Assembly: GCF_003018255.1 (NCBI RefSeq)
Contig: NZ_CP027440.1
From: Escherichia coli
GTDB lineage: Bacteria > Pseudomonadota > Gammaproteobacteria > Enterobacterales > Enterobacteriaceae
Direction: 5' to 3' (one strand)
Length of the DNA: 64,000 nucleotides
Of this stretch, positions 61,380 through 64,000 are shown piece after piece. Numbering within the stretch: position 1 is the stretch's first letter; each line of letters starts with the position of its first letter. The position numbers are program-made.

Positions 61380-64000
61380 TAAATGGTATTCAGAATAGCT
61401 AGCTCCCCTTATACCCATAACCAGCGCCAGACATCGCGTATTATGCTGTTGGTGTTGCTCGCAGCCGTGCCAGGAATCGCAGCGCAACTGTGGTTTTTTG
61501 GTTGGGGTACTCTCGTTCAGATCCTGTTGGCGTCGGTCAGTGCTCTGTTAGCCGAAGCTCTCGTACTCAAACTACGCAAGCAGTCGGTAGCCGCAACGTT
61601 GAAAGATAACTCAGCATTGCTGACAGGCTTATTGCTGGCGGTAAGTATTCCCCCCTCGCGCCATGGTGGATGGTCGTGCTGGGTACGGTGTTTGCGGTGA
61701 TCATCGCTAAACAGTTGTATGGCGGTCTGGGGCAAAACCCGTTTAATCCGGCAATGATTGGTTATGTGGTCTTACTGATCTCCTTCCCAGTGCAGATGAC
61801 CAGCTGGTTACCGCCACATGACATTGCGGTCAACATCCCTGGTTTTATCGACGCCATACAGGTTATTTTCAGCGGACATACCGCCAGTGGTGGTGATATG
61901 AACACACTACGCTTAGGTATTGATGGCATTAGTCAGGCGACACCGCTGGATACATTTAAAACCTCTGTGCGTGCCGGTCATTCGGTTGAACAGATTATGC
62001 AATATCCGATCTACAGCGGTATTCTGGCGGGCGCTGGTTGGCAATGGGTAAATCTCGCCTGGCTGGCTGGCGGCGTGTGGTTGCTATGGCAGAAAGCGAT
62101 TCGCTGGCATATTCCCCTCAGCTTCTTAGTAACGCTGGCGTTATGCGCAACGTTGGGCTGGTTGTTCTCACCAGAAACACTGGCATCACCGCAAATTCAT
62201 CTGCTGTCTGGTGCGACTATGCTCGGCGCATTCTTTATTTTGACTGACCCGGTTACTGCTTCTACGACCAATCGTGGTCGTCTTATTTTCGGCGCGCTGG
62301 CGGGTATATTAGTCTGGTTGATCCGCAGTTTCGGCGGCTATCCTGACGGCGTGGCTTTTGCCGTCCTGCTGGCGAACATCACGGTTCCTCTGATCGATTA
62401 CTACACGCGTCCGCGCGTCTACGGCCATCGCAAAGGGTAAACCATGCTGAAAACTATCCGAAAACACGGCATTACACTGGCACTATTTGCAGCGGGTTCT
62501 ACAGGGTTAACTGCGGCCATCAACCAGATGACCAAAACGACAATTGCTGAACAGGCCAGTCTGCAACAAAAGGCGTTATTTGATCAGGTGCTGCCAGCCG
62601 AACGCTATAACAATGCGCTGGCACAGAGTTGCTATCTGGTCACTGCGCCAGAGTTAGGTAAAGGTGAGCATCGGGTTTACATCGCCAAACAGGATGACAA
62701 ACCGGTAGCCGCCGTTCTGGAAGCAACCGCGCCAGATGGCTATTCTGGTGCGATTCAGCTGCTGGTGGGAGCCGATTTTAACGGCACGGTACTAGGCACG
62801 CGCGTGACAGAGCACCACGAAACGCCAGGGCTTGGCGATAAAATCGAACTGCGCCTTTCTGACTGGATCACCCATTTTGCGGGTAAAAAAATCAGTGGTG
62901 CGGATGATGCGCACTGGGCGGTGAAGAAAGATGGTGGTGATTTCGACCAGTTCACCGGCGCGACGATTACTCCCCGCGCGGTGGTAAATGCGGTAAAACG
63001 CGCCGGATTGTACGCTCAGACGTTACCGGCACAACTTTCTCAACTTCCTGCCTGTGGAGAATAAAGCATGAGCGAAATTAAAGACGTTATTGTTCAGGGG
63101 TTGTGGAAAAACAACTCTGCGCTGGTCCAGTTGCTCGGCCTTTGTCCGCTGCTGGCGGTCACGTCCACTGCCACCAACGCCCTGGGTTTAGGACTTGCGA
63201 CTACGCTGGTACTGACGCTGACCAACTTGACCATTTCGACGCTGCGTCACTGGACGCCAGCCGAGATCCGCATTCCCATTTACGTGATGATCATCGCCTC
63301 GGTGGTCAGCGCTGTCCAGATGCTGATCAACGCCTACGCCTTTGGCCTGTATCAATCATTAGGGATTTTTATTCCGCTGATTGTCACTAACTGTATCGTT
63401 GTGGGCCGCGCTGAAGCCTTCGCCGCCAAAAAAGGTCCGGCGCTTTCGGCACTGGACGGTTTTTCAATTGGTATGGGCGCAACCTGCGCCATGTTCGTGC
63501 TGGGTTCACTACGCGAAATTATCGGCAATGGCACGTTGTTTGACGGTGCAGATGCGCTGTTAGGTAGCTGGGCAAAAGTATTACGCGTGGAAATTTTCCA
63601 CACCGACTCCCCTTTCCTGCTGGCGATGCTGCCACCAGGTGCATTTATTGGCCTGGGACTGATGCTGGCAGGAAAATACCTGATTGATGAAAGAATGAAA
63701 AAGCGCCGTGCTGAAGCAACTGCCGAACGTGCATTGCCAAACGGTGAAACAGGGAATGTCTGATGAACAAAGCAAAACGCCTGGAGATCCTCACTCGCCT
63801 GCGTGAGAACAATCCTCATCCCACCACCGAGCTTAATTTCAGTTCGCCTTTTGAATTGCTGATTGCCGTACTGCTTTCCGCTCAGGCGACCGATGTCAGT
63901 GTTAATAAGGCGACGGCGAAACTCTACCCGGTGGCTAATAAACCTGCAGCGATGCTTGAACTGGGCGTCGAAGGGGTGAAAACCTATATCAAAACCATTG

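Follow-up and report, generated by a model that had tools for sequence, protein, structure and literature searches.

A one-base contraction in a C homopolymer splits rsxD in an Escherichia coli assembly and is probably a consensus undercall

RsxD of Escherichia coli K-12 (b1630; NF002011, 'electron transport complex subunit RsxD') is encoded in the operon rsxABCDGE-nth. According to PMC4759930, Rsx re-reduces oxidised SoxR, and deletion of rsxC leads to higher basal soxS, the latter being cited there from the original Rsx study. Lines evolved under amikacin plus chloramphenicol and sequenced with Illumina repeatedly fixed mutations in rsxC and rsxD, among them a 1-bp rsxD deletion at nt 254 (PMC5405530). 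The closest solved structure is Rnf subunit D of Azotobacter vinelandii (PDB 8AHX chain D), homologous to the E. coli protein over residues 4-349 (E=2.9e-78), with an intact subunit D in a different organism and a different role, i.e. nitrogen fixation as opposed to the reduction of SoxR by Rsx. Both proteins share the motif S-[I/L]-P-P-x-A-P-W-W, which surrounds the break described below. A different kind of comparison is offered by the phase-variable poly-G/C contingency loci of Neisseria, Haemophilus and Campylobacter, in which a G/C homopolymer lies inside an ORF and a one-base change switches the product off.

Here, a stretch of 64,000 nucleotides from an E. coli assembly (GCF_003018255.1, contig NZ_CP027440.1; hereafter the window) was analysed, in which the rsxA-B-C-D-G-E(-nth) cluster occupies positions 58104-64000. 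All neighbours of rsxD are present and intact, nth being cut only by the window end:

58104..58685, + strand: rsxA, intact (ORF and synteny)
58685..59263, + strand: rsxB, intact (ORF and synteny)
59256..61382, + strand: rsxC, intact, 708 aa, a repeat-number variant
61383..62440, + strand: rsxD, rnfD-type subunit D of the Rsx/Rnf complex, frameshifted (RefSeq orthologue, NF002011)
62444..63064, + strand: rsxG, intact (ORF and synteny)
63068..63763, + strand: rsxE, intact (ORF and synteny)
63763..64000, + strand: first part of nth (endonuclease III), which closes the cluster and runs past the window end (synteny with DETEC-S792)

The rsxD gene of the window is 1058 bp long, as compared to 1059 bp in intact orthologues, for which RefSeq likewise uses the name rsxD. 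A sequence-only reading had placed a 1-bp frameshift in a C6 homopolymer of this gene, and gene, position and size of the shift were all correctly called, C6 being the present state and C7 the intact one. Alignment with intact rsxD genes, a check which that reading had proposed, gives a single gap placed exactly inside the C run at 61650-61655 (+ strand), and K-12 MG1655 carries C7 at the same place rather than CCCCCGCTC. The event is thus a C7-to-C6 contraction. Intact genes read ATT CCC CCC CTC across the run (Ile89-Pro90-Pro91-Leu92), whereas the window's frame is interrupted by the 1-bp deletion and the ORF is split into pieces of 105 and 256 aa. Both pieces were found as predicted: the N-terminal ORF (61383..61700, + strand; MVFRIASS...LLLAVSIPP) comprises 91 native residues followed by 14 aberrant ones and stops at a TGA at 61698-61700, and the C-terminal ORF (61670..62440, + strand) resumes in the next frame at the native Met97 and ends in ...YGHRKG. 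The two overlap by 31 nt. Immediately before the downstream ATG lies GGTGG, leaving poor Shine-Dalgarno spacing.

Inserting one C yields a 352-aa product, which bears out the proposal that the two ORFs jointly make up one full-length RsxD. This repaired protein scores 634.8 bits against NF002011 (cutoff 415) over profile positions 1-351 of 352, a full-length match to the RsxD/RnfD family (NF002011, TIGR01946). As encoded, the N-terminal fragment covers positions 1-92 with 140.8 bits, i.e. under the cutoff, and the C-terminal fragment positions 97-351 with 467.8 bits. The SGAT motif, which we take to be the site of covalently bound FMN in RnfD/NqrB, is present at residues 276-279 of the repaired protein and hence falls in the C-terminal fragment. 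Exact copies of the repaired protein exist in about 106 blocks of public assemblies; since a single added C gives a 352-aa, NF002011-matching protein with such copies on record, the split gene is not a chance ORF pattern. Once the C is restored, the gene agrees with K-12 rsxD in identity, operon place and length, save for a few allele-specific substitutions that are common to intact relatives.

A separate length variation is seen just upstream, where the 3′ part of rsxC (60911-61335) holds a 96-bp tandem repeat of 4.4 copies (89% match) encoding a repeated 32-residue segment. RsxC has 708 aa in the window as opposed to 740 aa in K-12 and many other strains, and repeat copy number therefore varies.

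What distinguishes the window from its closest relatives can be judged only at near-clonal distance. The closest complete E. coli genome is 99.2% identical to the window, and exact-protein look-ups with UidA, RstB and a RecE-like protein gave only relatives at 98-99%, useless for private differences, whereas look-ups with MalX, TqsA and the repaired RsxD reached the near-clonal lineage. Exact copies of the 708-aa RsxC occur in 115 blocks of public assemblies, with a 352-aa rsxD in each of the neighbourhoods shown. C7 is likewise present in MG1655, DETEC-S792 and the assemblies L015-L019 and L030; one of them, L016, matches the window's rsxD allele at all lineage-specific SNPs and yet carries C7. 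Against GCA_029307295.1 (L030/L019), window positions 41684-63281 (21.6 kb) differ only at the C run, at a pair of 2-bp indels in malI and at one SNP, which is private to the relative and not to the window. Against GCA_043885025.1 (L039), identity is 100.000% over 21,035 bp (16424-37458). The C-terminal RsxD fragment of the window allele occurs in no assembly on record, and the C6 30-mer used below has no match among GTDB representative genomes. Because the near-clonal relatives are intact and the C-terminal fragment is found in no assembly, the deletion is either private to the window sequence and very recent, or not biological.

Comparison with relatives also bears on several minor features. 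In the mdtJ-ydgV intergenic region (26083-26086), the window reads C3, as opposed to C4 in seven relatives of about 98.3% identity; C3 is shared by the 100%-identical L039 and is thus a lineage feature rather than an error. In malX (52710-52727), an in-frame 6-bp expansion of a TTCCTG repeat (three copies versus two) lengthens MalX to 532 aa from 530, and as it is common to the near-clonal relatives it is a real lineage marker. In the fumC-fumA intergenic region, coordinate arithmetic places the ends of the approximately 445.5-kb contigs of two near-clonal drafts (ABLCDI01 and ABMCXQ02) at about 39217, within an A7 run (39213-39219); the window reads straight through this point, as by the same arithmetic the 390-kb contig of DAZSCZ01 should.

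Taken together, the near-clonal comparison of about 42.6 kb yields no private SNP and three private indel events (malI -2, malI +2 and rsxD -1). Extrapolated, this density corresponds to about 350 frameshift-type changes per genome without substitutions, and even with the rsxD event set aside, it having been the reason for flagging the locus, on the order of a hundred or more would be expected genome-wide. In real E. coli divergence, mismatch-repair mutators included, substitutions outnumber indels. An indel-only private spectrum of this kind therefore points to consensus error, for which it is typical, and is implausible for real divergence. A mismatch-repair mutator is unlikely, as it should have added many transitions to a window with no private SNP. 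The idea of a generally error-laden assembly was rejected in view of the identity with L039 over 21 kb, and the A/T runs of 7-8 bases in the window are all unaltered.

The malI changes deserve separate attention. The gene (50481-51509, minus strand) carries private compensating 2-bp indels at 51080-51122, 38 bp apart: T5 is shortened to T3, and CTGCAG becomes CTGCACAG through duplication of CA. The two cancel exactly, such that the ORF still encodes 342 aa, but at residues 130-142 VQEAAMTCDGWQK replaces AGSSDDLRRMAEE. No copy of the pair turned up in the near-clonal relatives, in any of 5,408 complete E. coli genomes, among JGI metagenome contigs or in the gene-product index. One possible origin is a real frameshift followed by a suppressor mutation within the gene; another is a local artefact of consensus building or polishing in which both errors are correlated. 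Errors arising independently and at random would seldom cancel exactly.

At the level of the species, the C6 allele was counted with a 30-mer that only C6 alleles can seed, in 5,426 complete E. coli genomes, and was found in 110 of them. The carriers belong to unrelated lineages, spanning O157:H7, O145, O103, ETEC O6:H16, ST-diverse clinical strains and a K-12 derivative. G/C heptamers are rare in this region: in the window only that of rsxD is conserved, one more lies in a prophage integrase, and within the 50 kb downstream of the rsx operon no G/C run of at least 7 was found, which is why control runs were drawn from a distant K-12 region (L024; recB run at 5098-5104, actS run at 49675-49681). 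With the intact runs, and the C8 allele of rsxD, counted in 'distant' search mode, C7 with the same flanks is present in 5,070 complete genomes and C8 in three, and the three heptamers compare as follows:

rsxD C7 run: contracted in 110, intact in 5,070 (2.1%)
recB C7 run: contracted in 34, intact in 1,855 (1.8%)
actS G7 run: contracted in 42, intact in 5,266 (0.8%)

Contraction rates of rsxD and recB do not differ (OR 1.18, P=0.45). Loss of recB is strongly deleterious, and the recB contraction is present in one assembly labelled as the recB+ lab strain C600. Contractions also fall in the same assemblies far beyond expectation, with 10 observed versus 0.46 expected for rsxD and actS (P=1e-11), 4 versus 0.38 for rsxD and recB (P=5e-4) and 5 versus 0.26 for recB and actS (P=5e-6); in a single assembly, CP027368, all three runs are contracted. 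Such co-occurrence is the pattern of an assembly artefact. The contracted genomes cluster in accession series, which suggests shared projects. Some of the C6 assemblies (L010-L012) have most of their rsx genes, in fact nearly every one, fragmented, and over 40,030 bp the rsxD C run is the sole difference between MG1655 and the K-12 derivative JW5437-1. Most public C6 calls hence behave like consensus undercalls of the heptamer rather than inherited or selected alleles, and the recB and actS contractions look like a systematic source of false pseudogene calls.

The same contraction has entered annotation repeatedly. RefSeq rsxD pseudogenes flagged 'frameshifted' by PGAP, for example V8956_RS19685 (NZ_CP146571.1) and AWN69_RS17875 (NZ_CP014348.1), show the identical C7-to-C6 change at the identical position in other genetic backgrounds, i.e. 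independent occurrences without a common ancestral allele, and 838 blocks of public assemblies encode exactly the same truncated protein of 105 aa. A duplication call, rsxD c.274dupC, concerns the same run and stands within a batch of homopolymer 'dup' calls common to two samples (PMC10967516).

The sequence-only reading had left the choice between a real inactivating mutation and a homopolymer error; these remain the only two serious candidates, and the new evidence tilts toward error. Probably, the missing C is a consensus undercall of the C7 homopolymer in the source assembly, which would then stem from an indel-prone technology, and in the organism itself RsxD would be a normal protein of 352 aa and the RsxABCDGE complex would work. 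The change lies in a long homopolymer, is missing from the closest genomes, is seen again in unrelated assemblies and goes together with similar changes at further runs of the same assemblies, all of which are marks of homopolymer artefacts. It is the combination of C7 as the intact state, intact near-clonal relatives, a recurrence that matches the recB control and private differences consisting of indels only that tilts the balance in this direction. Counting against it is a window that is otherwise very clean, but it is mainly the malI pair, which is not a typical platform error signature, that keeps the verdict from being firmer: genuine malI indels would leave room for a genuine rsxD deletion as well. 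A real and very recent -1 replication slippage in the C7 tract, private to the isolate and leaving it RsxD-null, is accordingly an unlikely account, albeit one that keeps some weight. The sequence as given encodes exactly a truncated RsxD, broken inside the motif that it shares with A. vinelandii RnfD, the sequence elsewhere in the window is highly accurate, the compensating malI pair looks biological, and Illumina-verified loss-of-function mutations in both rsxC and rsxD are selectable under antibiotics (PMC5405530). The rsxD deletion reported there, however, lies outside the C run, no relative has the deletion seen here, and three private indel events with no private SNP are too dense to be plausible as real mutations. 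Moreover, the population pattern of C6 is tied to particular assemblies just as that of recB is, and no secondary decay is visible in rsxD or in the neighbouring genes.

A functional role of the tract itself, be it as a phase-variable on/off contingency tract for Rsx or as a recoding site at which tRNA-Pro slips by -1 on CCC-CCC, is the most improbable of these accounts. Judged from the codons, a -1 slip in the P site on CCC CCC would regenerate exactly the native ...IPPLAPWW..., and tract length does vary in public sequences, as the C6 and C8 counts and the c.274dupC call illustrate. Yet, with in-frame C7 in 5,070 genomes as well as in all near-clonal relatives, the normal gene needs no frameshift, and a need for one is not conserved among orthologues as would be the case for programmed ribosomal frameshifting. 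While rsxD resembles the contingency loci in having a G/C homopolymer inside an ORF, its tract of only seven residues is short for this purpose, the in-frame length is nearly universal and the off-length is no commoner than in recB. Far from being independent of sequencing quality, C6 tracks assemblies with contracted recB or actS runs, and there is no evidence of reversible switching. It is only marginally less improbable that the C7 run is a real slippage-prone switch, with a share of the approximately 2% of C6 genomes being truly Rsx-null, or that an indel-only mutation burst produced the malI -2/+2 and rsxD -1 changes. Were a switch real, SoxRS activity would be raised constitutively in C6 variants, which would tolerate antibiotics or oxidants, and a core pathway of redox sensing would have a simple contingency mechanism in this run.

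Should the deletion be a genuine null allele, RsxD would end after Pro91 plus 14 aberrant residues, with most of the protein lost, including the SGAT flavin site, and a product reinitiated at Met97 would be without the N-terminal 96 residues. The Rsx complex would then presumably be inactive and unable to re-reduce oxidised SoxR, with elevated expression of basal soxS and of the SoxRS regulon as the outcome; polarity may in addition lower the expression of rsxG, rsxE and nth. Experimental evolution has linked such a state to antibiotic tolerance (PMC5405530), but the allele would still be an ordinary private pseudogene. The lesion is ordinary under the undercall reading as well, the same allele having already been seen and annotated in public genomes. 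Of broader consequence is that about 1-2% of 'complete' public E. coli assemblies show contracted G/C heptamers in rsxD, recB and actS, which are then annotated as frameshifted pseudogenes; without read support, pseudogene calls at such heptamers should not be taken as biology.

At its other end, from about position 1 to 15530, the window contains the early region of a lambdoid or Rac-like prophage, which also encodes Gam, RecT and a YqaJ-type exonuclease. Its main landmarks are:

6320-7090: cI-like repressor (Peptidase_S24)
9995-12043: exonuclease VIII-like protein, 682 aa
14365-15528: integrase, with a truncated ynfG just downstream

Within this region, an ORF at 4232-5314 carries a TTCCTG/TTCTTG hexamer repeat at about 4836-4841, the copy number of which varies among relatives.
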